From: Okamejei kenojei
Lineage: Eukaryota
Assembly (NCBI GenBank): GCA_035221665.1
Contig: CM069153.1
Location: 40,114,001-40,178,000, forward strand
Length of the DNA stretch: 64,000 bases
Direction of reading: 5' to 3'
This document shows positions 529 through 59,984 of the stretch, in pieces (positions within the stretch are counted from its first letter, which is position 1; each line of letters opens with the position of its first letter). The notes beneath the pieces were generated by a model. That model saw only the letters and a list, made by a program, of their open reading frames with translations. It was not told the DNA's origin and did not search any database. Both the position numbers and the translations under genes were made by a program.

Positions 529-549
529 TTATTTATGTAAGATATATGA

Positions 550-5678: not shown

Positions 5679-5872
5679 CTGAAAGGATCTGTAACTTGCA
5701 TGAGACGGAATGCATTTATAAGTCTTGGTGTTACAACAACCAGAACAGCGCTGTACTTCAACACACGATGGCCACAGAAAGAAGCCCACTGAAGTAGGGT
5801 CCACTTTATACCGAGGAACATCAACCGTGACTATTCTTGTTTTGCATCCAGCTGCTTTTGGACTGCTGTGCA
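5679..5872 (-). CDS. PDGF-A/B-like growth factor, exon 4: PDGF/VEGF homology domain (HSSPKAAGCKTRIVTVDVPRYKVDPTSVGFFLWPSCVEVQRCSGCCNTKTYKCIPSHASYRSFQ)
   Basis: CKTR..WPxCVEVxRCxGCCN..C signature with PDGFA/B cysteine spacing. Acceptor ttctcttctcataatcaaag|, donor CAG|gtaggt, 194 nt, phase 1 to 0 as in PDGFA/B exon 4. Confidence 0.95.
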
Positions 5873-5933
5873 CTTTGATTATGAGAAGAGAAAATGGAGA
5901 AATTATTACTTTCAAAGTACATCCTCGCCTATA

Positions 5934-6257
5934 TTTAGTTTAGTTTAGTTTAGTTTGGAGATACAGCGCGGAAACAGTCCCTTCGGCCCACCGAGCCCGC
6001 ACCGACCAACGATCCCTGCACAGTAACACTACCCTACACACACGATGGACAATTTTTTACATTTATACCAAACCAATTAACCTACAAACCAGTACGTCTT
6101 TGGAGTGTGGGAGGAAACCAAAGTTCTCGGAGAAAACCCGCGCAGGTCACGGAGAGAACGTACAAACTCCGTACAGACAAGTCAGGATCGAATCCAGGTC
6201 TCTGGCACTGTAAGCGCTGTAAGGCAACAAATCTACTGCTGTGCCGCTGTGTTGCCC
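5934..6257 (-). mobile_element. HE1-like V-SINE
   Basis: Full SINE body with (TAAAC)n tail. Confidence 0.85.
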
Positions 6258-6464
6258 ATTCTACCATGAATTCCTGAACTCCCCGCCTGGTTGTGCTGAC
6301 AACACAAATCGAATGTTGCATTAGTTGTGACAAGAAATGCTCTTTCCATTTCCTCCAGGGAATGGAAATGCACATTGCATACATCTGCCCCTAACACACC
6401 ACCTAGCTCCCAGAAAACAAAATATGTGTACCTATTATTCTGACTCATACCTTCATTAGTAATG

Positions 6465-7165
6465 GGTGCAGAATTAAGCCATTCGACCCATTCAATCATG
6501 GCTGATCTATCTTTCCCTCTCAACCCCACTCTCCCGCCTTCTCCCCATAACCCCTGATACCCTTACTAATCAAGAATCTAAAAATCTTCACTGTAAAAAA
6601 AATCCATTGACTGGGCCTCCACAGCCTTCTGTGGCAGTGAATTCCACAGATTTGCTACCCTCTGACTAAAGAAATTCCTCCTCATATCCTTCCTAAAGGT
6701 ATGACTTTTTATTCAGAGGCTATGGCCTCTTGTCCTAGACCCTCCCACTAGTGGAAACATCCTCTCAACATCCACTCTATTCTGGCCTTTCACTATTCGG
6801 TACGTTTCAATAAGGTTCCGCTCATTCTTCTAAACTCCAGCAAGTACAGGCCCAGTGCCGCCAAACACTCACCATGGACTCATCCAGAGACGGTGTTGTT
6901 TGACATAGAAACTTAGAAAATATGTGCAGGAGTAGGCCATTCGACCCTTTGAGCCAGCACCGCCATTCATTATGATCATGGCTGATCATCCAGAATCAGT
7001 ACCCTGTTCTTGCTTTCTCCCCATATCCCTTGATTCCGTTAGCCCTAAGAGCTATATCTAACTCTCTCTTGAATACATGCAGTGAATTGGCCTCCACTGC
7101 CTTCTGTGGCAGAGAATTCCACAGATTCAAAACTCTCTGGGTGAAAAAGCTGTCCTCATCCCAGT
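6465..7165 (-). mobile_element. Two CR1/HER1-like LINE 3' fragments
   Basis: MFPLVG.SR.RGHS..LWNSLPQ.AVEA coding remnant and CR1 3' UTR hairpin, present twice. Confidence 0.8.
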
Positions 7166-7217
7166 CCTTCTCTGCCTGTTACAACGAACATCTCCATGAC
7201 TGACTGATTGGCCTTAT

Positions 7218-7598
7218 GAAAGTGTGAGGCCATATGCAAATTGGAGGAACAGCACCTCTTATTTTGCTTGGGCAGCTTACAACCCAGCGGTATGAACAAT
7301 GAATTCTCTAACTTTCGGTAACTTATATAAACACTCCCCTCCCTCTTCCACCATTAAAAGTTGGTGAACCAGTTCCACAGTTTACAATGATGTATCCCTC
7401 TTGGGATCACACCATCCCTAGCCAACAATCAGCCTATTGGAACAATCCTTCCCGATGTCATGTTACCAGCCCAATCTAAAACTGAACTGAAAACTGAACT
7501 GAATGGAACAAATTTGTCTTGGTCTTTTCCTGCTTCCAGTTCCTCCCTCCTGCAATCAGTCCGAAAGACAGATTCCGACCCGAAACGTCGCCTATCCA
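7218..7598 (+). mobile_element. Penelope-like element 3' end (GIY-YIG C-terminus plus pseudo-LTR)
   Basis: KLEEQHL..LGSLQPSGMN.EFSNF remnant followed by a degenerate gacccgaaacgtc motif. Confidence 0.7.
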
Positions 7599-7604
7599 TT
7601 TTTG

Positions 7605-7830
7605 ATCCCGCCCACGGGTGCTATCTGTATGGAGATTGTACGTTCTCCCCATGACCACATGGGTTTTCTCCGAGGTCTTAGGTTTCCACCCACACTCCAA
7701 AGACGTATAGGTTTGTAGGTTAATTGGCTTGGGTAAATTGTCCCCGGTGTTTGTAGGATAGCGTTAATGTGCGGGGACTCGGTGGGCCGAAGGGCCTGTT
7801 TCCGCACTGCAATCTCTAAACTAAACTAAG
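7605..7830 (+). mobile_element. HE1-like V-SINE (5'-truncated)
   Basis: SINE core and (TAAAC)n tail. Confidence 0.8.
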
Positions 7831-10185
7831 TTAAATGTCTCTCAATTACTCTCAAGGATCTGCTTTAAAATAAGTCCTACCTTGCCCTTCTCTATTGAAT
7901 AAAGTCACTGGAATTTATTTATCTGGAATGGAATTCAATTTGATATGTTACTTATGAAAGTAATTTGCTGGCTTTGAATTCTATATTCCATGTGACACAT
8001 ATCACATGTTTTCAAGGATCGTAGTCATCTAACGTGGAAACAGGCCCTCACGCCCACTGTATCCATGGCAACCATCAACCACCCAATTACACTATTCTCC
8101 TTTTTTCACCTCATTCTCCGCAGCTCTCCCCAGGTTCAACCACCCACCAATTCAGAATGACCAATTAACCTACCAACCCACACGTGTTTGAGAAATGGGG
8201 GAAACCGGAGCACCCAGAGGAAATCCATGCCGTTACAGAGAGAACAAACAAATTCCACACTGACAGAACTGGAGGTTAGAATTGAACCAAAGTTTCAAGC
8301 GATGTGAGGCTGCAGACCTCGTGTTAGCCAAGAAACTTATTACAGTACAACCTTCTTCCATTTCCATGAAGGTAAAGACATAAAAGTTAAAGTTGGCATC
8401 TTTCAAGAAGAGGAACATAGATTGCACTGGAGTTGACAGTAATGTCATTTGTTAACAGAGTATCATCATACCTTCCCAAAGGGAATGGACTTGAACTTTA
8501 TTTCGCCTTCCATCACAGTGAGGAATGTGTAGGAGTCACTGTGGCGGATTTTCATGTTAAAATGTGTTTTGGGTGTTCTGTTGCAATTTATTTGTATGAC
8601 TGACTTGGCAAATGAAATTCCTCGTGTGTTGCAAAACATACTTGGCAAATAAAGTACTATTCTGATTCTGATCAAGCTATTTCCTCAGCATTCGTGTCAT
8701 CCCCATTCTTATTCCCCCACAACCCTGCAAGTTGAATCTTCTACCACCACTCTTTCAGACCGTAAATTCCAGATCAAGATCACTTGATCCGTGAAAAATA
8801 TTTTTCCCATATCAGCTTTGGGCTCTTCCTCCCTTTTCCTCTAAATCTGCATCCTCCAAATGTTGGCGTTTCTGCCAAAGGAAACGCTTTTGTTTCATTC
8901 ACACTGTTTCAGTCCTGGACAATTCGGAACACTTCTTTCCCATTAGCCCACACCTCTAAGGAGGACAATCATCATTTCTCCAACCTGACCCCTTACATTG
9001 TGACGATCCTACCTAATCCTTTCTGCACCCTCTATGGATCTTCCCATACTTGCTTTAGTGCAATGACCAAAACTGGATCCAGATCTTCATTGTTTTATAA
9101 GAGTTCAATGTAACCTCAACAGATTTGGCCTTTACACCACCACTTAAAATCACTTTCTGGTATAGCAGCATCAAATATTTGTGCACATATACATGCCAAT
9201 TTCTGTCCATATGCCTCTTTGTAATTGGGCCGTTTATATTGTTGTCTTTCCTGATTCTTCCTGACTATATCACTTTGCAGTTTTCTGCTTTTGATTTCAG
9301 GGATCAACTGAGTGAATTTCCTCTGAATTGCTTCCTTTCCTGATTGAAAGCTGCAGCAGTAAGACCTTTAGCCCATCGAGTCCATGCCGACCATCGATCA
9401 CCCTTTCACACTAGTTCAATGTTACGCCACTTTTGCATCTACTCCCTACACACCAGGGGCAATTTACTAAAACTATCAACCTACAAACTCAGCACCCAAG
9501 GTCAGGATTGAACCTGGGTTCGATCGAACCTGCACGCAGATGATACAAGGAGATGGGAAAACATTGTGACGAGAAAGCAGAGTCTGCAACATGACATAGA
9601 CAGATTAGATAAGTGGGAAAATATTTGCCACAGGAGTGTAATGTGAGGAAATGCGAGGTTGTTTAATTAAACGGAAAGTATGAAAAAACAGAAAAAGTAC
9701 CATTGAACCATTGTAATGACTTGCAGTCCCTAGATGACATCCCTAAGAGGACAATCACATCTGCAGCCAACCTGAATTAACCTGTCAGTTGCCACAAGTA
9801 TGTTGGACATTAAATAACTAATTCTGGGGAAACAAGACTGCAGCACCCTAATTCTGTTCTTTTTCACATTCTTACCTTATTTTCACTCTTTGTTGAGGAC
9901 ATTGCACTCGACTGCATCTAATGGTGATCGCATGCTCTGCTTTTACTGGACAGTTTCCCCAAACCTGAAATTATCTTCAGGATTAAGGCCAATGCAACTA
10001 TACTTGGATCTCTTTTAGATTTTAACTTAAGTGTTTCTCGTCCATTTTATGTAACAACTGTCCATTTTAACAACTGTCAGCATTGTTCTCGAACAGCTCC
10101 ACAGTGCAAATGCCATGACATGGGATGCTACTGAATTGCATTGTTTCACTTTGGAAAATTCTTTCAGCAAGGCAGATTTGCATTT

Positions 10186-10490
10186 GACTTTAGACTTTAG
10201 AGGTACAGCGTGGAAACAGGCCTTTTGGCCCACCGAGTGCACACCGACCAGCGATCACCCCATACACTAGCACTATCCTACACACTGGGGACAATCTACT
10301 ACTTTGCAAAGCCAATTAACCTACAAACCTGTACGTCTTTGGAGTGTGGGAGGAAACTGGAGCACCCGAAGAAAACCCACGCGGTCACGGGGAGAACATA
10401 CAAACTCCGTACAGGCAGCACCCGTGGTCAGGATCGAACATGGGTCTCTGGCGCTGTAAGGCAGCATCTCTACCGCTGCGCCACCGGTCC
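10186..10490 (-). mobile_element. HE1-like V-SINE
   Basis: Complete tRNA head, core and tail. Confidence 0.85.
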
Positions 10491-10934
10491 GCCTCCAGAT
10501 GTTAAGAAGGAAGCATCTGATTTTACTAACTTTAAAAAAAAATTTGGGCAGCATTCATGCGCTTAATGAATTATACCCATCCAGATTCATTTGCCCTTCT
10601 CATTATCCTGCCTATAAATAGTACACTGTTTTTAGTACACTTTGGTACACTTGGCCAAGAGATGATAGAGATGTGAAAATGATTGGTGTCTATTCTGGTA
10701 AAAAGCAGATTAGGCCAAGTAATGGACTCATTCTTGTGTGAAACTTCCATCGTTGACGTGCAACCTTATCAATTTCTCTAATCTGCTACACTTTCCTAAA
10801 GCGCCTACCCTGGCATCCATATTGTTCACCTCACCAGCTCATAAACATCCTCCTTTCCTAAGAAAGCCCAAAATGTTACAACTGAAAGAGTGTTCATTGC
10901 TGAGGATTCAAAAGATTGTTCTTGCAATTAAGTA

Positions 10935-11257
10935 GTTTAGTTTTTTTAGTTTAGTTTAGTTTAGAGATACAGCACAGAAACAGGCCCTTCGGCCCACCGA
11001 GCCTGCAGTGATACCCTCAAATTAACACTATCCTACACACACTAGGGCCAATTTACCTTTATTCCAAGCCAATTAACCTACAAACCTGTGCAACTTTGCA
11101 GTGTGGGAGGAAACCTAAGATCTCAGAGAAAATCCACACGGTCACGGTGAGAACGTACAAACTCCATACAGACAGCACCCGTAGTCGGGATTTAACCCGT
11201 CTCTGGTGCTGTGAGCACTGTAAGGCAACAACTCTACCACTGCACCACCATGCCACA
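10935..11257 (-). mobile_element. HE1-like V-SINE
   Basis: Complete body with (TAAAC)n tail. Confidence 0.85.
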
Positions 11258-12174
11258 CAAATGCGATGCTGATCCAAGCAGTAACTAGCAAGGGAGCCCT
11301 CCTACTTATAACAAGAATAAAGTTGGCTTTCAAATTGTAGCCGAGTTTTAATAGAAATTTGATTTTTTTTAAATCTTATAAGTTGAAGTAAAGTCCTCCA
11401 AGTTACATTTTAAATGCAGAGATTACTTATTGCAGAGGTGATTGGTGTTCTCCTAATTCTGCTCCAGCCAGAATGGTTTTAATCTAATTGAAAAAGATCA
11501 GAAAAGAGGAAAGTCTCTGGAAATCTGTGGCAACCAGGTGAGAATAACATCAACATAGTTTGGGAATCAGAAATATAAGGTGTTCTTCCAAGAATCAAAT
11601 GATCATAAGGCCTCGACAAATGGAAAAATGCAGCTTCAGGATAAAATGGTTAATTGTCCATTCAGTTCATGGCCCGATCCAAAATGTTTTCAATTACAAA
11701 CATATATAAGAAGTCAGAAGGAAAGCAGAAGAAGGTCCTCGCAAGTTGAAGGGACGCCAGCTTAATCTCATCCACTGGTGCTCCAGGAGCAACAAACAAC
11801 TCGCTGAAGGTACCCAGCCGGTCAAGCAGCATCTGTGGAGGGAAATGGACCGTCGACGTTGTGGGTCAGAACCCTCCACCTGAAAGGGTAGAGGGGAGAT
11901 AGCCAGTACGCAGTGGCGAGGATAGAGACGTTGGGGAAGAGCCGGCAAGCGATATAGGCGGATCCAGGTGAGGAGTGGTTGATCGGAAGATGGAGTCAAG
12001 TGGATGGGGGAAGGGGAGAGTGGAGATAGTGACAGAGGCCGGAAAGGTGATGAATGAAGGCAGCAAAGTGTCGCGGGTGGTGGGTTCGAGGAGAGAGGTG
12101 CTCCAAGTTGACGTGCACTTGCTGTTAAGCAGGAAATGGAAGATGTTCATCGACTAGTAGTAATACTAGCAGAC

Positions 12175-12321
12175 CTGCTTTAACTGCTGGTTGCTGGTTC
12201 TGTGGCGGACGCTCTTGTGGTAATACTGGGTGAAGCCGCGGGGTCGAGCGTTCGTCATTGCGAGCCTGGTGTCGAAGGTAATCATGAGTACTTTTGTATG
12301 AATCCCGCCAATGTGGCGCAC
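12175..12321 (-). CDS. PDGF-A/B-like growth factor, probable exon 3 ((G)APHWRDSYKSTHDYLRHQARNDERSTPRLHPVLPQERPPQNQQPAVKA)
   Basis: Strong acceptor tttgtttgtgctttgtgtcttttaag|, donor GCAG|gtctgc (weaker). 147 nt, open in phase 1-1, and joins exon 2 and exon 4 in frame. CpG-rich and non-repetitive. No recognisable sequence homology. Confidence 0.65.
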
Positions 12322-12649
12322 CTTAAAAGACACAAAGCACAAACAAATCTCACTCAGTTCAACTAGCATGTAATGCCGAGCCCACATCTACCACGAGACA
12401 TCATGTGGTTGTGCAAAATGCTCAGCTGATGAGATAATAGCCCTGGGCAGGCATTCACAGGGATTGAAGATGCCAGAGATTGTTGAATTTGATGTGACTT
12501 GAGTGGTTAACAGCATCAAGGAGCCAATTGTTATGCAGAATTATTGCATAACACTGCAAAAGCATCCAAGTTCGGAGTTCTGGCATCAACATGTCAGCCC
12601 TCTTTATTCCCCACGCAAAATACGTGGCACAGATTCAGTATTGTTATCG

Positions 12650-13080
12650 ATGGTGGACGCAGCCCAGACCATCACACAAACCAACCTCCCTTCCATTGAC
12701 TCCATTTACACCTCGTCCTCACGCCGCCTCTGCAAGACCCCCAACATAATCTAGGAGGAGTCGCACCCTGGCCACTCCCTCTTCTCCCCTCACCCATCAG
12801 GCAAGAGGTACAGAAGTGTGAAAACGCACACATCCAGATTCAGGGACAGTTTCTTCCCAGCTCTTTCAGACAACTGAACCATCCGACCAACAACTAGAGA
12901 GCAGTCCTGAGCTACCGTCTACCTCATTGGAGACCCTCGGGCTATCTTTAATCAGACTTTACTGGACTTTATCTTGCACTATTAACTGTAATCATGTATT
13001 GTCTTTCTGCTTGCTGGTTAGCACGCAACAAAATGTTTCACTGCACCTACAGTAGGTACACGTGACAATAAACTAAACCA
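12650..13080 (+). mobile_element. Rex1/Babar-like LINE 3' fragment
   Basis: VDAAQTITQTNLPSIDSIYT remnant and family 3' UTR. Confidence 0.75.
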
Positions 13081-13659
13081 AAGGGACTTTATTGCTTTAC
13101 GTGTGTGCTCATTGTCAACAGCCCACAAGTGGATTGTTGATTATTAAAGGATTATCAAGAGAGAGTTAGATTTAGCTCCTAGGGCTAAAGGAATCAAGGG
13201 ATATGGAGAAAAAGCAGGAACGGGGTACTGATTTTAGATGATCAGCCATGATCATATTTAATGGCGGTGCTGGCTCAAAGGGCCAAATGGCCTACTCCTG
13301 TACCTATTTTTCTATGTTTCTAACAATTGCTAGAGCCTGTGAACTGGGCACAGAGCTTGGGGGACTGTTTTAGGCACTACCTAAATCATGGGATAAACTT
13401 CAAAATATTGCAGTCAAATTGCAGACAAGACTGACAAGATTGTGGGGAAGTAATAATTACCTTCATTAATTCCAGTAATTTGCATAAGTCAGTGGGCATG
13501 CTCATTATTAGGGAGGAAGCAGCTTAAATTATTTGTGTTTAATTTTTAAAACACTTAAATTACCACCATTGAATCACGACTGCCGAGTGTTTTACTCTAG
13601 TAATTGTATTTATCAAAACACATCCCTTGGTGCCTATCACTCCAGTTGAGGTACGTGGT

Positions 13660-14280
13660 ACGTTTAGGTTGTGGACACTGCTGCACCTCTGTCTGGATTG
13701 TGGGACTGGATGGGCAGCGAGGGGGTCAGGAAGAGGTCTACACGCCACTAGAGTTGTGGGTCGCCGCGCGGGAGCTCCCGAATGCTGAGACTGCAGGTGA
13801 ACATCGCGGTGCTGTGGAGCGGCCAGCTGACTTTAACATCAGGAGCCTGGGATCTCTCGGTGAGATCACCAGTGGCGGAGCTCCATCCAGCGCGGCCTGC
13901 CGGCTTCGGAAGCCGCGGTCTCCGGTAAGGAAGCGGCCGTTCCAGGTGTCTCAAGCCGCTGAGAGGGTTCTCCCGACTCCGGAGCACCATTACCCGGCGA
14001 GAGGGCCTGAAACACCTGGGCGCCATAGCAGAGGCCCGACTATGGGCCTCTGAAGAGGCCCGACTATGGGCGGACAAGGCGATGGGGACTGGACTTTGTG
14101 CCTTCCCTCACAGTGGGAAACATTGTGGGGGGATGTTTTTATGTTTAGTGTTACATTCTTTAATGTTGAGTCTTATCTTTATTTGTGTGCTGCAATGGCA
14201 AGTCAAATTTCACTACACCAATTGGTGTATGTGACAATAAATGTCCTTTGTATTTGTATTGTATTTGTATTTGTATTTGC
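13660..14280 (+). mobile_element. Unclassified GC-rich retroposon with (TATTTG)n tail
   Basis: CpG-rich body, then gtgacaataaa and a microsatellite tail like the LINE 3' ends in the window. Confidence 0.5.
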
Positions 14281-26155: not shown

Positions 26156-26585
26156 ATGCAAATGTAAGATCGGCCTTTCCTGAGAGGAATCCACTCTCTG
26201 TGAGTTTGGTTAAACAAACTCATTAAGTGGATGACGTTACAACTGCAGGAGATATCAACCAAGAGACAAAGATTGCACCACCATCACACTTCCCAGTGCT
26301 TTTTTTTTAACTGTTTCTGCATTTTACCCCTGAATGCGGCTTTAAATCTAAATAGTGTATTGTTCACCTTATTATTTGTTGCATTTAAACACACAAGGCT
26401 CTGTACATTAGGCCTACCTGTTCTGGATCTGGGTCTGATGCCAGCAGGATCTGTTGAAAGAATATTAAAATTAATGCAATGTAAATAATTGGTATATTGT
26501 TATAAAACATTCATTAAACATATCGTTGAATAGATGTGTTAATTTTTGGAGATGTAACCTTTCTACATTATGATAGAATTTCACT

Positions 26586-32383: not shown

Positions 32384-32974
32384 GGGCCTGTCCCACTTAG
32401 GCAACTTTTTAGACGACTGCAGGAGACTATGCAGTCAGTCACATGGTCGCCACATGTTTGCGGGTAGTTGCCGGGCAGTCGCCTTCATGGTCGCGAGGAG
32501 TTCCCGCATTCTGGGAACTAGTCGCGGCCTCATTATGGTCGCCGCTAATTTTTCAACATGAATGAAGTCGCCATGGAGAGTAGCGAGAATTCTTGTGCCG
32601 TAGGTGGGTCGCCAGAATGTCCTAATGGGTCGCCAGGAGGTCAAAGGTTCTCGGAGGTTCTCGTAGGTTGGAGCCGGTGCTGACTGGTGAATTTCATTGG
32701 CTCATTGGGAAAAAAAGGTAAGCAGTAATTTTCAGAACCAAGGATAATCGACGGTAACGTTAAATGTCCACCGAGCTTCACAGCCCTGTCTAAAAAANNN
32801 NNNNNNNNNNNNNNNNNNNNNNNNNNNNNNNNNNNNNNNNNNNNNNNNNNNNNNNNNNNNNNNNNNNNNNNNNNNNNNNNNNNNNNNNNNNNNNNNNNNN
32901 NNNNNNNNNNNNNNNNNNNNNNNNNNNNNNNNNNNNNNNNNNNNNNNNNNNNNNGTCCGCTGAAAAATCGCCCA
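32384..32974. mobile_element. MITE-like DNA element (gggcctgtcccactt terminus) spanning an assembly gap
   Basis: Left end resembles the TIR of the other MITEs and shares the internal ttttcaacatg motif; only part of the expected right TIR (aaaaatcgccca) is present. Confidence 0.55.
32798..32954. other. Assembly gap (157 N)
   Basis: Run of n characters. Confidence 1.
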
Positions 32975-38356: not shown

Positions 38357-38384
38357 TAGACCTAAGTTCACAAGTTTATGTTCA

Positions 38385-40229: not shown

Positions 40230-40350
40230 CTTTGGCTTCGACACCCAGGAGATGTTCCAGGTCACCAATACTCCGGATGTCTGCTTGACCAATTATCTTC
40301 AGAACATCATCCGGGAGACCATCCTCTTTGTCAATGTCTTTAGGCATATC
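40230..40350 (-). CDS. PDGF-A/B-like growth factor, coding exon 2 (PDGF_N propeptide: DMPKDIDKEDGLPDDVLKIIGQADIRSIGDLEHLLGVEAK)
   Basis: Acceptor ttattttctcgaacag|, donor AAAG|gtaggt, 121 nt, phase 0 to 1. LPDDV..IRSIGDLEHLL matches the PDGFA/B propeptide motif IPxE....I(H/R)S(I/F)xDLQRLL. Confidence 0.9.
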
Positions 40351-42690: not shown

Positions 42691-42720
42691 GTCAGATTTA
42701 TCCCTACCTTATATTGCTCA

Positions 42721-46959: not shown

Positions 46960-47735
46960 CAAGTCTTCATGGAACATCATGACCCGGTGTCAAGGCAACA
47001 ACCTTTCTCTCAATGTCTGCAAGACAAATGAGGTAGCGATTGACTTCAGGAAGCGAAACGGTACACATTGATGGTGCCAAAGTAGAAATGGTTGAAAGCT
47101 TCAAATTCATAGGAGTAAATATCACCAGCAACTTGTCTTGGACCACCCGTACTGAACCAATGGTCAAGAAAGTACACCAACACCTCGACATCCTTGGAAG
47201 GCTGAGGGGTGTCGACATGTCCCCAACAACTCTCACCAACTTCCACAGGTGCGCCATAGGAAGCATTTTATCGGGGTGCATCACAGCAAGGTTTGTGAAC
47301 ATCTCCATCCAAGACTGCAAGGAATGTCAGAGCATTGGGGACACAGCCCAGACCATCACACTAACCAACCTCCCTTCCATTGACTCCATTAACACCTCAC
47401 GTTGCTTCGGCAAGGCATAATCAAGGCTGAGTCACTCCCCTCTCCCGTCAGGCAAGATATACAGAAGTGTGAAAAAACGCACACGTCTACATTCAGGGAC
47501 AGTTTCTTCCCATCTGTAATCAGGAAAATGAACCATCTGATCAACAACTAGAGAGAGGCCTTAGCTACTATCTACCTCATTGCAGATCTTCAGACTATCT
47601 TTGATCGGCCTCTATCTTGTATCAGTATACTGTGAATGGCTCAATGTAATCATGTATTGTCCTTCCGCTGACTGGTTAGCACGCAACAAAAGCTTTTCAC
47701 TGTACCTCGGTACGCGTGACAATAAACTAAGCTCA
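46960..47735 (+). mobile_element. Rex1/Babar-like LINE 3' fragment
   Basis: NNLSLNVCKTNEVAIDFRK..VESFKFIGVNITSNLSW..AIGSILSGCITA. Confidence 0.85.
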
Positions 47736-49371: not shown

Positions 49372-49396
49372 AAGGAGGCCTGCAAGAAAGTATTAG

Positions 49397-49830: not shown

Positions 49831-49959
49831 CGGTATTATTACTGAATACAAATGTCAAGCAGAATGTCTGCAGAAATAAGGAGTGCAGCAATCACAACAC
49901 AAGCTAGTTGGTGCCATACAGCAGATTGGTGCAATACTGAGTTCATAAGATCATAACAT

Positions 49960-50490
49960 CAGGCATCTGAACCATCCTGCCAACAATTAGAGAGCAGTCT
50001 TGAGTTTACTGTCTACCTCATTGGAGACCCTCCGACTATGTTTGAATGGACTTTACTGGACTTTATCTAATATCTAAATATTATTCACGTTATTCCCTTT
50101 ATCATGTGCCTGTGCACCATGGATGGCTTGATCGCAATCATGTTTTGTCTTTCCGCTGACTAGTTAGCACGCAACAAAAGTTTTTCACTGTACCTCAGTA
50201 CACGTGACAATAAACTAAACTAAACTAAACTACACCATAAGACATATGAGCAGAATTAGGCCATTCGCCCTATCGGGTCTGCACCGCCATTCGATCATGG
50301 CTGATCTATTTTTCCCTCTCAACCCCATTCTCCTGCCTTCACACCATAACCTTTGAGTTTTAGCCCTTTTGTAATCAAGAACCCATAAACGTCCCCTTTA
50401 AAAATATATAATGGCTTGGCCTCCACTACAATCTATGGCAATGAATTCCCCAGATGCACCACTGTCTGGCTAAAGACATTCCTCCTCATC
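49960..50490. mobile_element. Rex1/Babar-like 3' UTR (+) abutting a CR1 3' end (-)
   Basis: Family 3' UTR and tails recognisable from other copies in the window. Confidence 0.7.
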
Positions 50491-51209
50491 TTCTGTCATC
50501 TGATGAGCATGTTAAGGGATCCAAGGACATTGGTAGTAAGGTAGTCAAACTGATAGCACAGGCACTGTGGTGCCTGGAGTTTCTGACTGGGATACTATTT
50601 TTTTTTGGTCCGAAGTGATCTACATCCTTCGCATGAATAGAAAAGGCAAAAAGAAGGCATTGGAAATCTTGAATAAATAGTGACCTCAATACCAACGGCA
50701 ACAACGTGGGAATGTAAGAATGCACAGGACAAGGAGCACATTGAGCCCTATCTTTTCACAGACCACATGCGTCATGTTCAATCTATCTTAGCACTACTTC
50801 TACATTTAATATTAGTAAGGAAAACCTTGCAATTTTTGGCAAAAAAATCTAATTGGAATTAATCATTTTAATATCAGTAGCAAGTACGTTAGTCGGAACA
50901 ATGATAGGAAATTTCCTTCCCCCCCAGTCTTATTGTCTTTATATATATCCAATGCTCCCAACCATTTCTTGACAACATATGAGGTGAATTGAATTGGCTT
51001 CTGTGATGGGGGCATAATTATGAGGCAGTTTGGAGGGATTGTATATTGGGCATTTCTAAGTGAATGTTCCTGGATTCAGGGTCAGCAAGCAGCAAAGTAA
51101 TAGTTTCAATGGAACAGACTGAGACCGGACGATGCAACACAAGTACAAAGAGAGGTTGAAAAAATTGCAAAGAAATAGGAAAGCTACATGGCGGGCACAG
51201 CGTGTTGAG

Positions 51210-51526
51210 GGCAGCACAGTGGCACAAAGGTAGAGTTGCTGCCTCACAGCGCCAGAGATCTGGGTTCAATCATGACTACGGGTGCTGTCTGTACGGGGTT
51301 TGTACCTTTCCACCATGACCACGTGGGTTTTCCCCAGTTGCTCCAGTTTCCTCCCACGCTCCAAAGACGTACATGTTTGTAGGTTAATTGGCTTCGGTAA
51401 TGAATTGTAAATTGCCCCTAGTGTGTAGGGTAGTGCTGGTGTACGGGGTGATCCCTGCTGGTCGACGCGGACACATTGGGCTTAAGGGCCTGTTTCCTCA
51501 CTGTATCTCTAAAGTAAACTAAACTA
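51210..51526 (+). mobile_element. HE1-like V-SINE
   Basis: Complete head, core and tail. Confidence 0.85.
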
Positions 51527-51534
51527 CAGTCAGC

Positions 51535-52055
51535 CTTTGCATAGCTCAGCATGGTTAGGGAGGAGCTCCACCCAAGACCGCAAAAAAGTGCAGAGATTTG
51601 CGGACGCAGCCCAAACCATCACACGAACCAACCTCCCTTCCATTGATTCCATCTACACTTCACGCTGCTTCGGCAAGCCCACCAGCATAAACAAGGAAGA
51701 GTCACACCCCAGTCACACATTCTTCTCGCCTCTCTCATCAGGCAAGAGATACAGGTGTGAAAATGCATACCTCCAGATTCAAGGACAGTTTCTTCCTAGC
51801 TGTTATTAGCCAACTGAATCGTCCTCTCAACAACTAGAGAGCGGTCCTGACCTCCCATCTACCCTCAGACTATCTTTAATTGGGCTTTACGGGACTTTAT
51901 CTTGCACTAAATGTTATTCCCTTTATCCTGTATTTGTACATTCTGGAAGGGTTGATTGTAATCATGTATAGTATTTTCGCTGATTGGATAGCATGCAACA
52001 GAAAAGCTTTAAATTGTACCTCAGTACATGTGACAATAAACTAAACTAAACCAAA
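51535..52055 (+). mobile_element. Rex1/Babar-like LINE 3' fragment
   Basis: QDRKKVQRFADAAQTITRTNLPSIDSIYTSRC remnant plus 3' UTR. Confidence 0.8.
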
Positions 52056-52502
52056 ACCAAGATTATGACACCTGGTTCATGGGATAGTGAAGAAGTCTGA
52101 GACAGCATTTATTGAGCAATTTCATAATTAATCATGGAACAATTCCATCTATTTAATAATATTCTTCTGTGGCATAATTTTACATGACCATGTCCTGTAA
52201 ATGTTTAAAAGATCTTTGCCCTGTGGTAATATGGCACCTACTATGGCCATCGCAATTATTTAGAAAATACTTTATACATAACACTATCCAGAGAAGCTAA
52301 CATGGCTTGCCTGGGTTGGAACACAAGTCTTTACCATTTTGTCAGCAAAAGCTTTTCAGTATTATAGTGTGAAAGCGCATACCTCGAGATTCAGTGACAG
52401 TTTCCTCCTGGTGGTTTATTAGGCAACTGAACCATCCTATCAATAACTAGTGAGCGATCCTGACCAACCATTACCTCATTGGAGACTCTCCGAATATCTT
52501 TG

Positions 52503-52594
52503 GTAGACAAAATTGCTGGAGAAACTCAGCGGGTGAGGCAGCATCTATGGAGCGAAGGAATAGGTGACGTTTCTGGTCGAGACCCTTCTTCAGA
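52503..52594 (-). mobile_element. Penelope-like pseudo-LTR fragment with hammerhead motif, inserted in a Rex-like 3' UTR
   Basis: Minus strand CTGAAGAagggtctcgaccaGAAAcGTCacc; same boundaries as the 253-346 copy; ctccgaatat repeated on both sides. Confidence 0.7.
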
Positions 52595-52851
52595 ATATCT
52601 TCTCCGAATATTTTTTATCAGACTTCATCTTGTAATAAATGTTATTCCCTTATCCTGTCTCTGTACACACCATGACGGCTTGATTGTAATCATGTATAGT
52701 CTTTACGCTAACTGGATAGCATGCAACAAAATACATTTTCGCTCTTACCCCGTACACGTGACAATAATAAACTAAACTAAACTAAATTTCAACTGAATGG
52801 GATAGTTATCATCATCTTTAAGGTGATGGAAATGTGGAAGGGTGAAAATCG

Positions 52852-53305
52852 CTTTCAAGAGAGAGCTAGATAGGGCTCTTAAAAAGAGCGGAGTCAGGGT
52901 ATATGGGGAGAAGGCAGGAACGGGGTACTGATTAGGGATGATCAGCCATGATCACATTGAATGGCGGTGCTGGCTCGAAGGGCCGAATGGCCTACTCCTG
53001 CACCTACTGTCTATTGTCTATTGTCCTACTATAGAGGGCAAGCAATAAGGTCAGAAGTGGCAAGTTTAATGGAGACATGCATGGGCAAGTTTTTTTTACA
53101 CATAGATTGGTGGGGGCCTGGAACGCACTGCCAAGGATGGCGGTGGAGGCAGATTTAAGAGCCTTTGGATAGGCACATGGAACTGCAGGGAATAGAGGGA
53201 TATGGACCATGTGCAGGCAGATGCGATCAGTTTAACTTGACATCATGTTTGGTACAAACATTGTTGGCTGAAGGCCTGTTCCTGTGCTGTACTGTTCTAT
53301 GTTCT
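52852..53305 (+). mobile_element. Two CR1-like LINE 3' fragments
   Basis: CR1 C-terminal remnants and tails. Confidence 0.75.
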
Positions 53306-53935
53306 AAGATACTTCAGGTTAATATGGTTTAAATGGACTCGTAAAGATTCCCAAAGTTAGCATACTCGCGTTGGCAAAAGTAAGAGAGAATTTATATTCT
53401 GGTTGTAGCATTTCTTTTACACCGCACTTGGTTTTTTCCAGACACTACACAACTTGAATAAACAGAAAGATTGCAGTGGCAAGTAATCAGACATTGGCCT
53501 CAATCTTCTGTTCAAAAGCCAGCAGCTCTGCTCAGGATTCACTTCACTGGGCAAAAGTTAATGACTCACGGACACAACTGAAGCTTTCTGCCTTGACTGA
53601 GAGCTCTGAGCAAGACACCTCACAGAGTCCAAGTTGAGAAGTGTAGACTACCATCGGTCTCTTGGCATTTAGGCCTGGAAACCTACCAACTGAGTCTGTC
53701 TCAGTTCACCTGGTGTGGACTCAACCAGTCCATTGATTTCAATAGGAAGAAGCAGCTAGAGAAGAGGGGAAGTGGAGGAAAGTGCATGCTAGGTTTCTAT
53801 TTGAAAACCAAACATTTCCAGATGTTTTAAATAAAAGTAAACTGCAGGAAATACACAACAAGGAAGGCAGAATCCATGGAGAGAAAAACATTTAATGTTT
53901 TTGGCAAAAATAAAGACACAAAGTGCTGGAGTTAT

Positions 53936-54262
53936 AGCCCCGTCCCACGGTACGAGTTCATTCCAAGAGCTCTCCCGAGTTTAAAAAAAATCAAACACGT
54001 GATAAACACGGATAATGAACATAGCGGGTACCTCGGAGCTCGGGGACGTCTCTTAGCGGCTCGTAACGCTAACGGCAGGTACTCGGGAAGACTCGCTAAC
54101 GGCAGGTAAGCACGGGAAGACGCGTGAAGATTTTTCAACATGTTGAAAAACGTCCACGTGAGCCCCCAGTAACGACGAGTGGCCATTACAGTAAATCTCC
54201 GAGTTCGAATCAGGGCAAAGTTGGCTAGCTCTTGGAATGAACTCGTACCGTGGGACAGGGCT
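53936..54262. mobile_element. MITE (PIF/Harbinger-like TIRs), younger copy
   Basis: About 36-bp TIRs agccccgtcccacggtacgagttcattccaagagct / agctcttggaatgaactcgtaccgtgggacagggct. Confidence 0.85.
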
Positions 54263-54545
54263 TTCACAATGCCAGAGACCCAGTTTGGTTTCTATCTATG
54301 AGTGCTGTCTGTACAGAGTTTGTACATTCTCCCTGTGACCGTGTGGATTTTCTCAAGAATGCTCCGGTTTCCTCAAACATTCCAAAGATGTGGAGGTTTG
54401 TAGGTTAATTGGCATCAGTAAAAGTGTTAATCGTCCCTAGTGTGTAGGATAGTGCTAGTGTACGGGGATCGCTGAGTGGTTTAGACTCGGTGGGCTGAAG
54501 GGCCTGTATCTGCACTGTATCTCTCAAGTTTAAAGTTAAAAGTCG
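54263..54545 (+). mobile_element. HE1-like V-SINE (5' end missing)
   Basis: SINE core and tail. Confidence 0.8.
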
Positions 54546-55319
54546 AACTCAGTGGATCAGGCAGCATCTCTGGAGAACATGGATAGATTACGTTTTATTC
54601 GAGGTTGCAGAAAGGGAGAGCGTCAAATGAACAAAGGAGCGTCCATGATAAGAAGACCAAGGTTGTCCAGGTGACTATATGCTTTCTGAGCAATCCAGTT
54701 CATGGGTGAATTGGGACGGTTAAAAAATGAATAAAGAATGTGTGGGAAGCTGAATAAGCCAATTGCTGGAAATCTGAAACAAAAGAGAATGCTGAAAATA
54801 TATCTAGCAGATCAGTTGGCACCTGTGGAGAGAGAAACCCTGATTGACCTTACATTAGCAATTCTTACTCGGACAGGCAAAGTTATTTATCTGAAGTTGC
54901 TGAATTGTTCAAAGTCCCATGAGTTGCAACATGCCCAGGTGAGGTGTTCGTTCTTTGAGCTTAGGTTTGACTTTGTTGGCAGAGCGTAGGAGGTCAGAAT
55001 GAGAATGAAATGGAGAATTGAAGTAACAGAAACTGCAAGCTCCAAGGGCACAATGTGTCATCTAATCTACATTAGGTTTCAACTTGTAGAATAAGCCCCA
55101 TTATGGGTACAAAGTGCAATGCATGGATTGGAAGTGAATCGCTGCCTCAGATTGAAGGATTGCTTGGGTCCCTGGACAACAGGAAAGGAAGAGATAAAAG
55201 TGTCGCCGTTGTTTCTTTGGCAATTGCAAGGGAAAGTATTGTCAAAAGGGGAATGTTTGGTGGAGATTAATGATCGAAAAAGGGAATCAGAAAAGGAATT
55301 ATCCCCTCAAAATGGTCCC

Positions 55320-55732
55320 CTGAGGGGGAACCTCATTGAAACATACCTAATAGTGAAAGGCTTGGATAGAGTGGATGTGGAGAGGATGTTTCCACTAATG
55401 GGAGAGTCTAGAACTAGAGGTCGTAGCCTCAGAATTAAAGGGTGTTCGTTTAGGAAGATGAGGAGAAATGTCTTTAGTCAGAGGGTGGTGAATCTGTGGA
55501 ATTCTTTGCCACAGAAGGCTGTGGAGGCCAAGTCAGTGGATATTTTTAAGACAGAGATAGATAGATTGTTGATTAGTACAGGTGTCAGAGGTTATGGGGA
55601 GAAGGCAGGAGAAGGCATGAGAATGGGATGGAAAATGGGGTTAGGAGGGAGAGATAGACCAGCCATGATTAAATGGCAAGAGTAGACTTGATGGGCCAAA
55701 TGGCCTAATTCTACTCCTATTCCTATGACCTT
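55320..55732 (+). mobile_element. CR1/HER1-like LINE 3' end nested in an old Penelope-like element
   Basis: LRGNLIETYLIVKGLDRVDVERMFPLMGESRTRG..LWNSLPQKAVEA. Confidence 0.88.
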
Positions 55733-55739
55733 AAAGTGG

Positions 55740-56380
55740 AAGGAAAGGAAAGATGCATCTTCAGGTTCCCATGTTGTTGAAGGTAGCGGAAATAACTGAG
55801 AATGATCTATCGAATGTAGAGGCTGGGAGATGGTGATAAAGGAAACCAGAATCTTGTTCCAGCTGGAAGGAGGGGAGAAGGGAGCAGATGTGAGAGAAAT
55901 AAAAGAGTCACTGTTGAGAGAGTCTTGTCATCTATAGCAGAGAGAACACCATGGTTAAGGATAAAAGGCACTGGTGGACAAAGACTTATCAACAAAGATG
56001 GAACAGAGTCCTTACCGGAAGCAGGATGGGAGGAGGTGTAGTCAAGATAGTTGTAGGAGTCTGTGGGCTGATAATTGATATTGATTGTGTGTCTCTCCCC
56101 TGAAATGGAGACAGAGAGATCAGGATAGAGGAAAGAAATTCCAGATATAGAGCATGAAGAATTATTTTTGTTTGCCACCTTGACATCTGAAAGTGAGAAC
56201 AAGGTGAAATTTGACAAACAGTAAAAGCTTTATCTGTGCAAGTGCAAAAAGTAGCAACATTAACTCCATTAATGTAGCGGGAAAAATAGTTGAGGGAGAG
56301 TTCTTGTCCAAAACTAAAATAAAGACCCATAGAAATACAGGCATAACATGGACCCATGCCCATGTAATACAAGGGAACTG
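55740..56380 (-). mobile_element. Old Penelope-like element, RT remnant
   Basis: ISFL..DLSVSISG..NINYQPTDSYNYLDYTSSHPASGKDS matches the Penelope RT motif (FLD...Y.KPT...YL...S.HP...K). Its diverged 3' part continues at about 54740-55260. Confidence 0.7.
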
Positions 56381-56665
56381 CAGATGCTGGTGTATACCAA
56401 AGATAGACTCAAAATGCTGGAGTAACTTAATAATAATCTTATTATAATAATAATAATGGATAAGAAAGGTGTAGAGTGATAAGGGGCTAAATGCATGTAA
56501 ATGGGACTAGCTTAGATGGGACATCTTACGATTATTTGTATAATAATAATATAATTATTGCTTAATATAATAAACTTGCTTTTTAATCATTTATTTTTGA
56601 GTGTGGCTGAGTGTTTTTGAAGGATTGCTGTAATGGCGACTGAACAGTAGGAGAGGGCTTCACCC

Positions 56666-56679
56666 GTTACCAAGGCAAC
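56666..56679. promoter_or_regulatory. Candidate RFX X-box (GTTACCAAGGCAAC)
   Basis: 14-bp match to GTNRCC(N0-3)RGYAAC in non-repetitive sequence with local CpGs. Confidence 0.4.
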
Positions 56680-57412
56680 GCAAGAGACGGAGATTGCCAC
56701 ACACACTCAGTGAGGTCCACAACTGTTCCAGGTCTCTCCTTACAACTGGAAACCAGAGTCCCAGCAGAAGCCTGTGCCAGCTCCAAGGGCAGGCCACCAG
56801 CAAGATGTGGCAGCTTGCCAATTGGTAAAAGATCCTCTGCTTCCCTTTATTGTTTGTATAACAGCAGTTAGAGCCTCCATGTGCTCAGCTTTGTAAGATT
56901 TGATCTAATGTTTTTCTTTCTTCTTACTCAACATTTCTTCCAAAACTATGTGTTGTGGGAAGGGGCCAAAAACCTGCAAGCCAAATGATAACATTGTTAA
57001 AACGTTTTTTTTTTAAACGCTGTGTCCTTCCCTGTGAAATTCTTAGTTGTTTTGTGTAAAGTCCAAGAGCAATGTTTTTTTGCACTAAAATAACATCTTG
57101 CTAAACATTTCAGCTAATCAAATAATAGTAAATTAGGAATTTCATGTTTAAGATGCTGAATTATCCGATAACTGGAATAATGTCAGTTTACAGTTCATAT
57201 TGAACACTAAAGAGCCTGACATCATACTCAGAGGCCAGCGGGTTGCTTCTCATGACCCTTAGAATAAATTGCCTATTTAAGCTGGATCCCTTGGGTTTAG
57301 TTGTGCAATAAATGTACTGAGCCAGATTTTGCAGTCCAAATAGTGGTAAAATGTCCGAGAACTGCCATTAACTACATATGAACAAGTAAATGGGTAAATT
57401 AGGAAGCCTGTT

Positions 57413-57715
57413 GTAGAGCACGGAAACAGGCCCTTCGGCCCACTGAGTCCGCGCCAACCTGTGATCACTCCATACACTAATACTATCCTACACACCAGGG
57501 ACAATTTATAATTCTACTGAAGCCAATTAACCTACAAACCAGTACTTCTTTGGAGTGGGGGGGGGAGGGGGAGGGGAAATCAGAGCACCCGGGGAAAACC
57601 CGCACGGTCACAGGGAGAATATATCAGCTCCATACTGATAGCACCTGTAGTCAGGATTGAACCCAGGTCTCTGGCGTTGTAAAGCAGCAATTCTACCGCT
57701 ACGCCACTGTGCCAC
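57413..57715 (-). mobile_element. HE1-like V-SINE
   Basis: SINE body with an internal G-run. Confidence 0.8.
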
Positions 57716-58261
57716 TTTATTATACTCCAGGTAATAACAGTATCCATACACTAGATATCAATATTATACCTTCGAAGGTAACAGTATAATCAAGCCCTTG
57801 AAGAATGTGGAATATGTATGTATCTGATATGCCTTCATTAAAATCCTCAGAAAGGAAGCCTAGCCTAAGGAGTCTTTTTTTACATAATGTCACAAATATG
57901 GCAAAACAACTCCCTGGTACTGAATATTAACGTTAAAAACGGTGGCATCCTATTCCTTCAGAATTAAACGAGTACTGGAGAATTTTATTAAAAAGTGACA
58001 ATCTGTTCATTCTTTCCATTTTTCATTTTGTTCTTGATATTGAATTCATTTTTCAAATTAACATTTTCCGATTTGCACACAACATTGGTCAGTTATTCAG
58101 TTTCTCGATCTGATTGTTTAAGGCAATATACAGATTGCCTACTCTTTTATAGTTTTAAATATGGATTATTAAACTTAACATGAAACCAACATATAAACAA
58201 TTGTTGTCTATTTCTTCCTTTCTTCACCCTTGGACAAAATTAATAAAACTCATACTCTTAT

Positions 58262-58680
58262 GTCATAAGTCAGAAGTGATAGTAGAATTAGGCCATTCGG
58301 CCCATCAATACCCATTTAATCATGGCTGATCTATCTCTCCTTCCAAACCCCATTCTCCTGCCTTCTCCCCATAACCTCTGACATCTGTACTAATCAACAT
58401 CTATTTATCTCTGCCTTAAAAATATCCACTGACTTGGCCTCCACAGCCTTCTGTGGCAAAGAATTCCACAAATTCACCATCCTCTGACTAAAGAAATTTC
58501 CCCTCATCTCCTTCCTAAAAGAACGTCCTTTAAATCGGAGTCTATGATCTCTAGTCCTGGACTCTCCCACTAGTGGAAACATCCTCTCCACATCCACTCT
58601 ATCCAAGCCTTTCACTATTAACTGTATGTTTCAATGAGGTCCACTCTCATTAATCTAAACAGGCCCAGTGCCGACAAACG
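58262..58680 (-). mobile_element. CR1/HER1-like LINE 3' end
   Basis: KGLDRVDVERMFPLVGESRTR..LWNSLPQKAVEA. Confidence 0.85.
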
Positions 58681-59688
58681 CTTATATTTTTAGTAAACTA
58701 TATTTTCAGAAGTTTCATTTCCTTCTGTTAGGATATTAACAATATTTTACAATTATGAATTTACATTATAACAATGCAAAATTATTTGAGATATCTAAAG
58801 ATGTGCAGTATATAAAAGCAATACTCCCCCCCCCCCCCCCCTCCCTCCGTCCCTTTCTTATTTTGTTGTATTTGTTCACATTTCTGGGTTCTGATGAAAG
58901 AAGGTCGACCTGAAACATTATCCCTGTTTTTCTCTCCACAAATGCTACCTTACCTGCACGGTATTTCTATAAGTATTTCATCCACAAGACTGTAAATATG
59001 AGAATATAAGAAAGTAGTCCATTCTAGGAATCAACCTGTGAACCTTTGCTGCTCTCCCTCCAGAGCAAGTATAGATAAAAAGACAAAAATAGTTCACATT
59101 TCTCCAGGCGTTTTGTATTCTCACTCATGATTGATCTCTACTAAAGGCTCAATACACTGTGAAGTGAATTAGACTTTATTAACATTAAAACTCCTTTTAA
59201 CAGATTGAACCAAAGAGAGAGGTTGACACTCGTATTCTCCCTTAGAGTTTGGGATTGAACGTATGAACAGAGTTTCACTATTTATCAGATGCTGACCATA
59301 AATCAACACAGCAACATATAAAAGTCTGCATCCACTACTGCTCATTGATTATTTAACATAAGCAAAGTGTAAACTGAGCAATGTGCATCACAGATATCAA
59401 CAAAATTCACTGCGAGCGTTCTCTGCAATATAGGTAAACCCATGAGAAAATTATATATAAAAACAACTTATATATGTCTACAACTGGACCAACTACAATT
59501 TGCACAGCTTGAGATATTGCAAATAATTTTCTTATATCACAACTGAACATACTGTACATACAACTATACTTAACAGTCGCACAACAATTAGCAAAGCAAA
59601 TCAGAAATCCAAAAAGGAGGTGCTCAGACATGCAAGCAAAGATTCCAAGACATCACATGCTGTTGGATCTAAAAGCAATATTTATTAC

Positions 59689-59748
59689 CTCAGAGTAGGC
59701 AGTCCAGAAACAGAAGAGGGATAGGAAAACAAGGAGCTGGGACTTCAT
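59689..59748 (-). CDS. PDGF-A/B-like growth factor, first coding exon (signal peptide MKSQLLVFLSLFCFWTAYSE)
   Basis: ATG in aacaacATG context, then 20 codons with a hydrophobic core ending ..AYSE and a phase-0 donor GAG|gtaata. Same layout as PDGFA/PDGFB exon 1 (signal peptide ending in Glu at phase 0). An acceptor ttttttgcag| lies 18 nt upstream of the ATG (exon start 59766). Confidence 0.85.
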
Positions 59749-59984
59749 GTTGTTTTCAGTTGTTTTCTGCAAAAAATCCATTTGCTGTAGCAATGTGGTG
59801 ATGAACTGAATTATAGTCTAGATAATTGCAGTCCCCTTTTTCTCAGCTGCCCAGCAATGTTTGTAAATGAGGTCTCACATACAGCTTCCGCACTAAACCT
59901 ACGCCCACAAAAAGCCAATGGAATTCATTAGTGAATGCTTCCCCTTTTAACTCTTAGGCTGCTGAAGGGCAGCACTCATCATGC

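Follow-up and report, generated by a model that had tools for sequence, protein, structure and literature searches.

A third PDGF-A/B-type gene in the skate Okamejei kenojei, probably an ohnologue kept by cartilaginous fishes

A stretch of 64,000 nucleotides (nt) from the skate Okamejei kenojei (GenBank assembly GCA_035221665.1, contig CM069153.1, positions 40,114,001 to 40,178,000), here called the window, contains six of the eight coding exons of a gene of the PDGF-A/B type. Our analysis points to an intact third A/B-type gene, likely an ohnologue that cartilaginous fish have kept and bony vertebrates have lost, whose product is likely a secreted disulfide-linked dimer that would signal through PDGFR-alpha after extracellular activation; this reading as a whole we regard as probable. 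The origin can be stated more firmly: the gene is very probably the locus on segment 2-alpha of linkage group H, the second-round sister of segment 2-beta, which carries PDGFB. A third A/B-family ohnologue had been proposed in a preliminary description made from the letters of the window, and this interpretation was supported. C23 denotes the skate contig with the studied locus, and C22, C37 and the like denote other contigs of the same assembly. Plain exon coordinates are positions in the window, whereas coordinates with a contig prefix refer to the whole contig.

The membership of the gene in the family was first read from its knot exon (194 nt, 5679..5872, minus strand), which encodes cysteines 1-6. 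This exon matched the PF00341 domain with an E value of 9.4e-14 and 51.9 bits (cut-off 27), as the preliminary description had expected of a cystine-knot domain, and the orthologue P0001 scored 70.6 bits. All eight conserved cysteines were present in 39 of 39 orthologue rows, six in the knot exon and two in an exon to the left of the window. Among solved structures the protein scored 99.6 bits with PDGF-A, 79.6 bits with PDGF-B and 44.9 bits with the best VEGF. Pfam found only PDGF and a weak PDGF_N on the gene, with no CUB and no BR3P domain, and the ESM Atlas returned generic PDGF/VEGF clusters only, the first structure row being a PDGF-A cluster (TM 0.76). Within the C23-type group the knots are at least 69% identical; identity is 44-50% to PDGF-A and 35-49% to PDGF-B. 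When the majority residue was taken in each of 84 knot columns, 29 columns matched both paralogues, 11 PDGF-A only, 6 PDGF-B only and 38 neither. The 32/56 identities to PDGF-A and 26/56 to PDGF-B that had been counted in the preliminary description were reproduced exactly with chimpanzee PDGF-A and a mammal-type PDGF-B row.

A search of the genome with the knot exon returned three strong loci, namely C23 itself, C22 (55%) and C37 (58%), followed by three VEGF-type exons. The C22 exon is PDGFA: it is 90-97% identical to tetrapod and coelacanth PDGF-A, and among the best 120 of 547 rows it matched PDGF-A from sharks to primates at 90-100%, while three rows at 53-60% were skate and sawfish PDGF-B types, which match the C37 exon. 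The C37 exon is PDGFB, with skate and sawfish PDGF-B as its closest named relatives. Canonical pdgfa and pdgfb loci, which the preliminary description had wanted to be looked for, are therefore present on C22 and C37. In all three genes the knot exon is flanked by a phase 1 and a phase 0 intron. Separate PDGF-C/D-type exons lie on C1 and C6. One VEGF-like exon (C43:4000567-4000695) has irregular cysteine spacing and may be degraded or frameshifted.

The three loci share their neighbours. Each of the three PDGF genes, all on the minus strand, has exons of the Fam20C family on the plus strand directly downstream of it; C10 carries a fourth member of that family. On C22 and C23, RIIa exons of the PRKAR1 type (among 6 matches in all) were found upstream of the PDGF gene, again on the minus strand. 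Compared with solved structures, the C23 neighbours scored best as FAM20A (85.6 versus 64.6 bits) and protein kinase A RI-alpha (70.4 versus 63.8), and the C22 neighbours as FAM20C (85.9 versus 57.7) and RI-beta (57.0 versus 41.0). The distance is 4.0 kb between the stop of the C23 gene and the last FAM20A match, and 41.8 kb between its ATG and the RIIa exon. FAM20A and PRKAR1A thus flank the gene just as FAM20C and PRKAR1B flank PDGFA, and slot and orientation are the same. A FAM20A/C-type gene (C37:13831802-13865787), one exon of which scores best on FAM20A, is next to PDGFB. The three SoxE matches fell one each on C22, C23 and C37; from their N-termini we take these genes to be SOX8, SOX9 and SOX10. 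Three multi-exon Fringe-family genes (among 21 matches) are on the same three contigs, and RPL3-family genes are on C22 and C37. The C22 gene groups with the bony PDGF-A genes and occupies the FAM20C-PRKAR1B slot, and the C37 gene groups with bony PDGF-B on a chromosome with RPL3 and a gene that is presumably of the SOX10 type. The C23 gene has neither of these places; it has ohnologous neighbours in conserved order, as is expected of a paralogon. With FAM20A and PRKAR1A instead of FAM20C and PRKAR1B as neighbours, and with a clade of its own in the trees (support 100/99), it is not a PDGFA orthologue, as had been suspected from its divergence.

Published maps allow the three contigs to be assigned to ancestral segments. 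The part of PMC3560075 that we used describes a paralogon on human chromosomes 7, 16, 17, 19 and 22 and finds FAM20 'consistent with 2R', with inconsistencies between methods. In supplementary information (SI) Table 3 of PMC10115646, linkage group H of the little skate is resolved into 1-alpha (LER20), 1-beta (missing), 2-alpha (LER23) and 2-beta (LER37), and according to the tables of that paper Pdgfa-1 is on chromosome 20 and chromosome 23 holds Prkar1a and Fam20a at a distance of 140 kb. The Leucoraja PDGF-B record lies on a contig of 13,149,398 bases, which is the size listed there for scaffold rank 37. A table in PMC7756535 gives ABCA8, FAM20A, PRKAR1A, WIPI1 and LINC01482, and no PDGF, for a 400-kb window of human 17q24.2. 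From the locus we infer that one A/B-type PDGF is present on every segment of linkage group H that survives, and that the C23 gene is the second-round sister of PDGFB. Since the C23 gene is on segment 2-alpha and PDGFB on the sister segment 2-beta, the name 'PDGFA-like' is probably a misnomer.

The phylogenetic trees were built from 93 columns with 38, 21 and 27 rows, hagfish and basal bony fish being added in the last; VEGF exons, which have half the length only, were left out as an outgroup. With 38 rows, the C23-type genes formed one clade (100/99) with a long stem and short inner branches, and shark and bony PDGF-A formed a separate group (90/75). All three builds agree on a separate C23-type clade and none places it. 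In the best tree of 21 rows it was weakly joined to chondrichthyan PDGF-B (38/87). The trees are compatible with an ancient origin without proving it, and synteny carries the argument.

Several observations weigh against this account of the origin. In the best tree of 27 rows the C23-type genes stood beside one hagfish PDGF (84/82) on a very long stem. The approximately unbiased (AU) test did not reject a grouping with shark PDGF-A only (p-AU 0.397 with 21 rows and 0.063 with 27 rows), with all PDGF-A (0.158) or with all PDGF-B (0.292). Both the structure scores and the diagnostic columns bring the knot nearer to PDGF-A than to PDGF-B. No RIIa exon was found on C37 among the 6 genome matches, and the margin by which the C23 neighbour scores as RI-alpha is small. 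In three exons the C37 FAM20 gene is 60% identical to that of C22 and 56% to that of C23, so that there is no clear FAM20A pairing, and the exon identities showed no pairing of C23 with C37. This FAM20 gene is possibly another ohnologue that is missing from mammals.

The AU results, PDGF-A as the closest solved structure, the RefSeq name PDGFA-like and the lack of a bony-fish orthologue in the protein searches would all suit a PDGFA duplicate that arose within the cartilaginous fish and then evolved fast, and the accessible part of PMC10328876 treats the gene as an 'individual gene duplication'. We consider this very unlikely. A single-gene copy would have had to reach a different chromosome and land there precisely between paralogues of both PDGFA neighbours with orientation and introns intact, and a copy of the whole segment is unlikely because the neighbours score best on FAM20A and RI-alpha of mammals, genes that are older than the split. 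In addition, shark and chimpanzee PDGF-A are 88% identical, and the shark protein clusters with bony PDGF-A.

To obtain the complete gene, the Leucoraja orthologue was placed on the 264 kb surrounding the window. The C23 gene spans 68 kb on the minus strand and has 8 coding exons with 274 codons, a single terminal stop and no internal stop; 254 of the 274 residues are identical to Leucoraja P0002. Exon 1 (59689..59781) contributes 93 nt from the upstream ATG, encodes a leader with a hydrophobic stretch that by eye resembles a signal peptide, and ends in a GT donor. Both of its methionines, at 59781 and 59748, are kept in 15 of 15 aligned orthologues. The preliminary description had used the ATG at 59748 and had set the end of the gene at 59766, which is not an exon boundary; the orthologues start at the in-frame ATG at 59781. 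A Thr/Pro-rich cassette exon of 84 nt (56016..56099; AG/GT, phase 0/0) follows, which is included in the skate and Mobula isoforms P0001, P0002 and P0007 and missing from other isoforms. Exon 2 (121 nt, 40230..40350) is the start of the PDGF propeptide and matched PF04692 at positions 2-30 with an E value of 0.0013, which is below the cut-off; it also gave a weak second-domain alignment to the propeptide of 3MJK/3MJG. The PDGF_N motif announced for this exon (40350-40230) is thus there over the first 30 model positions, and weak at 19.8 bits (cut-off 29.5).

The next exon is small and constitutive (33 nt, 26418..26450; AG/GT, phase 1/1), with 12 of 12 residues as in skate P0002. It is followed by a cassette exon of 147 nt (12175..12321; AG/GT, phase 1/1), which encodes a 49-residue spacer ahead of the growth-factor domain and is included in P0002, P0185 and P0186 and skipped in P0001 and P0177; the 'linker' exon of the preliminary description is therefore real with its AG/GT borders, but a cassette. 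A Pfam RIP match on it (E 0.064, below the cut-off) was taken as chance. The knot exon, with phase 1 before and phase 0 after it, is 98% identical to Leucoraja P0001 and 72% to Callorhinchus P0026. The intron behind it (1..5678, minus strand) leaves the window at the left, where two further coding exons lie, both on the minus strand. The H-x-x-C-x-C exon (113 nt, C23:40113853-40113965), which encodes loop 3 and the end of the knot, begins 35 bases left of position 1; it had been predicted there and is present and open. The last exon (40 nt, C23:40105950-40105989), about 8 kb left of the window, holds the stop and a short, weakly basic tail, 12 of 12 residues of which equal the tail of P0002. 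All five combinations of exon skipping that were tried keep the frame.

The four exons of the preliminary description (60, 121, 147 and 194 nt; 59748-59689, 40350-40230, 12321-12175 and 5872-5679 on the minus strand) were confirmed to be in frame: their join has 522 nt and 174 codons without a stop, and every internal boundary is AG/GT. The exons are real and the structure was incomplete, missing the 33-nt and 84-nt exons and the two left of the window. A direct junction of the 121-nt to the 147-nt exon over an intron of 27,908 nt is unsupported: the 33-nt exon (26450-26418) lies between them, and the direct join was seen in 0 of 39 orthologue rows, of which 37 show the segment of the small exon and 2 are without the preceding exon. 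This unsupported junction is what speaks for reading the exons as a pseudogene or as unrelated pieces brought together by chance. Such an explanation is already refuted and practically out of the question, given eight exons with canonical sites, one terminal stop and the near identity to Leucoraja P0002, together with orthologues in 19 species and spliced contigs in relatives. The missing exon is intact, which also removes the doubt on this point raised in the preliminary description.

Proteins of 186 and 235 residues, which cover six or seven exons and either include or skip the 147-nt cassette, are encoded on public-assembly contigs no longer than 1173, 1310 and 1328 bases. Since the gene spans 68 kb, six or seven exons on at most 1328 bases mean that these contigs of close relatives must be spliced RNA. 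In the species itself, four runs on 10 kb gave two read contigs in which the knot exon stands alone and is followed by 234 and 556 letters that do not match a continuation into the neighbouring intron. We gave these little weight, since repeats swamp the runs, one run is probably DNA and an exon-exon joint was not among the joints shown; the four runs on 10 kb showed no own-species read support for the junctions.

The window contains a single run of 157 N (32798-32954), in the intron between the 121-nt and 33-nt exons, which touches no exon. Introns and flanks carry many repeat fragments, for example at 47037-47417 and 62688-63116, which by their likeness we assume to be of the LINE type.

Orthologues of the C23 gene were found in 19 cartilaginous fishes, among them sharks, rays and chimaeras. 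In a word-based search with the exon, 26 of 42 rows were 72-98% identical and came without exception from cartilaginous fish (17 species including Callorhinchus), and the remaining 16 rows were at 50-55% and were PDGF-B where clearly named. Two additional skates with an orthologue were found as cluster members. With a profile of 15 sequences, the same 26 rows, out of 38, reached at least 209 bits, and scores then fell to 106. In an index-free protein search one representative scored 404 bits and the next 130, and the best 150 of 565 comprised 1 C23-type, 76 PDGF-A and 73 PDGF-B sequences; the representatives stand for clusters of 50% identity, which could hide a member. Ten of these rows were identified as 2 hagfish PDGFs, 3 PDGF-A and 5 PDGF-B (bichir, paddlefish, gar, coelacanth and bamboo shark). 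A bony-vertebrate orthologue was not found in the word-based, profile and index-free protein searches. The proposal that the ohnologue is kept in cartilaginous fish thus stood; its loss seemingly concerns all bony vertebrates sampled and not mammals only. Such a loss in bony vertebrates is likely, judged from protein searches and not from their loci, which has to be held against the account given here.

We then compared the processing signals of the group, counting rows that include isoforms and are not independent. The R-X-X-R motif within 25 residues before the first cysteine was present in 0 of 38 C23-type rows (1 more was too short), in 94 of 114 PDGF-A rows (3 more too short) and in 29 of 31 PDGF-B rows (3 too short, 2 not parsed). 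The prodomain of the gene of this skate has no R-X-X-R, the motif is absent at the 33-nt exon, which is the convertase-site position of PDGF-A and PDGF-B. On the other hand, the cassette exon itself contains an R-X-X-R in 4 of 39 rows; none has R-X-K/R-R. According to the part of PMC4147316 consulted, furin-type convertases cleave human proPDGF-A. The small exon retains a lone Arg or Lys at the homologous place, which would be a fitting target for an extracellular protease of the trypsin type; inclusion of the 147-nt cassette puts this conserved residue 49 residues from the knot. A basic tail with at least 6 Lys or Arg in 10 residues was found in 0 of 39 C23-type, 30 of 34 PDGF-B and 35 of 117 PDGF-A rows; the count refers to annotated isoforms, and an unannotated one is possible. 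PDGF_N was matched by the C23-type genes at model positions 2-31 with 14-21 bits (cut-off 29.5), compared with 89.2 bits for shark PDGF-A. Skate PDGF-B (P0189) has no PDGF_N match, yet the R-X-X-R site and the basic tail are kept (P0189, P0092). Judging from the sequences, strong constraint has preserved this PDGF from skate to chimaera although it has neither a convertase site nor a retention tail.

For the protein, the following course can be proposed. With little doubt it would be secreted and would dimerise, and because the eight cysteines are complete in every row a covalent dimer is expected, as is established for the family. The chances are slightly in favour of a protein that escapes the furin-type convertases, exits the cell with its propeptide and is cleaved outside by a trypsin-like protease, at the one basic residue that is conserved. 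It would probably diffuse instead of sticking to the matrix, and it may, with about the same plausibility, act from the epithelium on PDGFR-alpha-positive mesenchyme.

Expression was approached through published fin data of the little skate. The gene named 'Pdgfa-2' appears to be the C23 gene from the ids of its neighbours, which presumably are genes of chromosome 23; that the identity comes by this route counts against our reading. SI Table 5 of PMC10115646, as far as we could use it, compares the anterior with the posterior pectoral fin and lists 'Pdgfa-2' with a log2 fold change of +4.73 (adjusted p 3.7e-36) and Tp63 with +2.63, and Pdgfra with -3.47 and Pdgfa-1 with -1.16. Alx4 and Pax9, which mark the anterior fin, and Grem1, which marks the posterior, all have negative values in this table, and the contrast was read as epithelium against mesenchyme.

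Only one PDGF receptor was found in the assembly, a gene on C1 that scores as PDGFR-alpha (92.8 versus 78.4 bits). Two kinase exons of this receptor, searched genome-wide, returned the same eight related kinase loci on top, and the juxtamembrane exon returned four of them. A gene on C11 scores as CSF1R; a kinase of the TEC family lies 140 kb upstream of it and one of the VEGFR type downstream; a second PDGFR was not found in the 280 kb around it (C11:44046001-44326000), and three genome-wide searches of this assembly found neither PDGFR-beta nor any third PDGF receptor. A real loss of PDGFR-beta is opposed by PMC7717901, which reports PDGFRB in ghost shark, and by the tables of PMC10115646, where 'Pdgfrb' is on chromosome 11 and 'Csf1r' is absent from the file. 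The little skate label 'Pdgfrb' may be a mislabelled CSF1R, and the absence of PDGFR-beta from the assembly possibly reflects a gap. In their accessible parts, PMC4898815 lists two PDGFR genes for jawed vertebrates and PMC13225842 describes a glial blood-brain barrier in some elasmobranchs. A much bolder statement would be that cartilaginous fish keep a fifth PDGF ligand, the lost sister of PDGF-B, in which protease-gated release replaces furin activation and matrix retention, and that at least in this skate three A/B-type ligands act on PDGFR-alpha alone, PDGFR-beta, which serves pericyte recruitment in bony vertebrates, having been lost; in this full form we hold it to be unlikely.

The same origin could also go with another job, in which the uncut pro-form or a rebuilt loop 3 turns the protein into a weak agonist or an antagonist, into a partner that tunes PDGF-A or PDGF-B by forming heterodimers, or into the ligand of another receptor. 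With the loop limits of PMC10781716, in its accessible part, loop 1 is PDGF-A-like and loop 3 is rebuilt, being invariant in places within the group and unlike both PDGF-A and PDGF-B at 8 of 10 positions; with only 2 of 10 positions matched to PDGF-A or -B, receptor binding may be weak or altered, a further point against the signalling proposed here. The 38 of 84 knot columns that match neither paralogue, the missing convertase site and an N-glycosylation sequon at the last cysteine pair (37 of 39 rows) point in the same direction. Arg27, Trp40, Asn54, Tyr77 and Leu84 (PDGF-B numbering), however, are kept in the group and loop 1 remains PDGF-A-like, loops 1-3 being the receptor clamps according to PMC10781716, and the published fin data fit a paracrine ligand. 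We therefore regard another job as a real but improbable outcome, and prefer a paracrine ligand of PDGFR-alpha.

The existence of the gene is already known, but no publication was found that describes its ohnologue origin or its altered processing features. RefSeq names the C23-type gene 'PDGF subunit A-like'. In PMC10328876 (Rauniyar et al. 2023), the legend of Supplementary Fig. S7 states that PDGF-A is duplicated ('PDGFA-like') in all sharks analysed, and the legend of Fig. 4 places PDGFA-like among the individual duplications. This shark gene is almost certainly the C23-type gene, the RefSeq models being up to 98% identical in the knot exon. In the portion of that paper available to us, synteny, ohnologue assignment and an analysis of the processing of PDGFA-like were not found. 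The searchable literature, which excludes subscription papers, yielded no ohnologue or synteny account of the gene, and no PDGF term occurred in the 12 of 24 supplementary files of the whale-shark paper that were searched. The accessible part of the little skate paper (PMC10115646) counts 19 ohnologues that cartilaginous fish have retained and bony fish have lost, and the C23 gene may be among them. In the Callorhinchus records P0026 and P0187 the names are crossed: 'PDGF subunit A' stands for the C23-type orthologue, and 'subunit A-like' for that of PDGF-B.

If the account is true, the jawed ancestor had three PDGF-A/B genes, one for each surviving segment of linkage group H, and the 'PDGFA-like' entries of shark databases would be the sister of PDGFB, which would change the count and the history of a core growth-factor family. 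The crossed PDGF names in Callorhinchus would be corrected, and the gene would offer a natural experiment on propeptide removal and matrix binding as the setters of PDGF range.

Among the known systems, PDGF-A (PDGFA; PDB 3MJK; PF00341 and PF04692) is the best solved match (E 1.2e-27). The C23 gene shares with it the eight-cysteine spacing, the intron phases around the knot exon, the paralogous FAM20-PDGF-PRKAR1 block, the loop 1 residues P26, R27, P32 and S34, and Y77 and L84. It differs in a knot that is 44-50% identical, whereas PDGF-A orthologues are at least 81% identical, in its chromosome, in the absence of the convertase site and of the basic tail, in the rebuilt loop 3, in its two cassette exons and in a propeptide that is shortened beyond its first 30 residues. 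PDGF-B (PDGFB; PDB 3MJG, 1PDG) is the second solved match (E 1.6e-21) and by its locus the likely second-round sister; skate PDGF-B has the WPSC and CSGCC motifs in common with the C23 gene. In contrast to PDGF-B, with which the knot is 35-49% identical, the C23 gene is without the R-X-X-R site and the basic tail. From PDGF-C and PDGF-D it differs by the lack of a CUB domain and by the A/B-type cysteine spacing. PDGF-C and PDGF-D are latent PDGFs that require an extracellular protease, and in this way of working only, the C23 protein may be compared to them.

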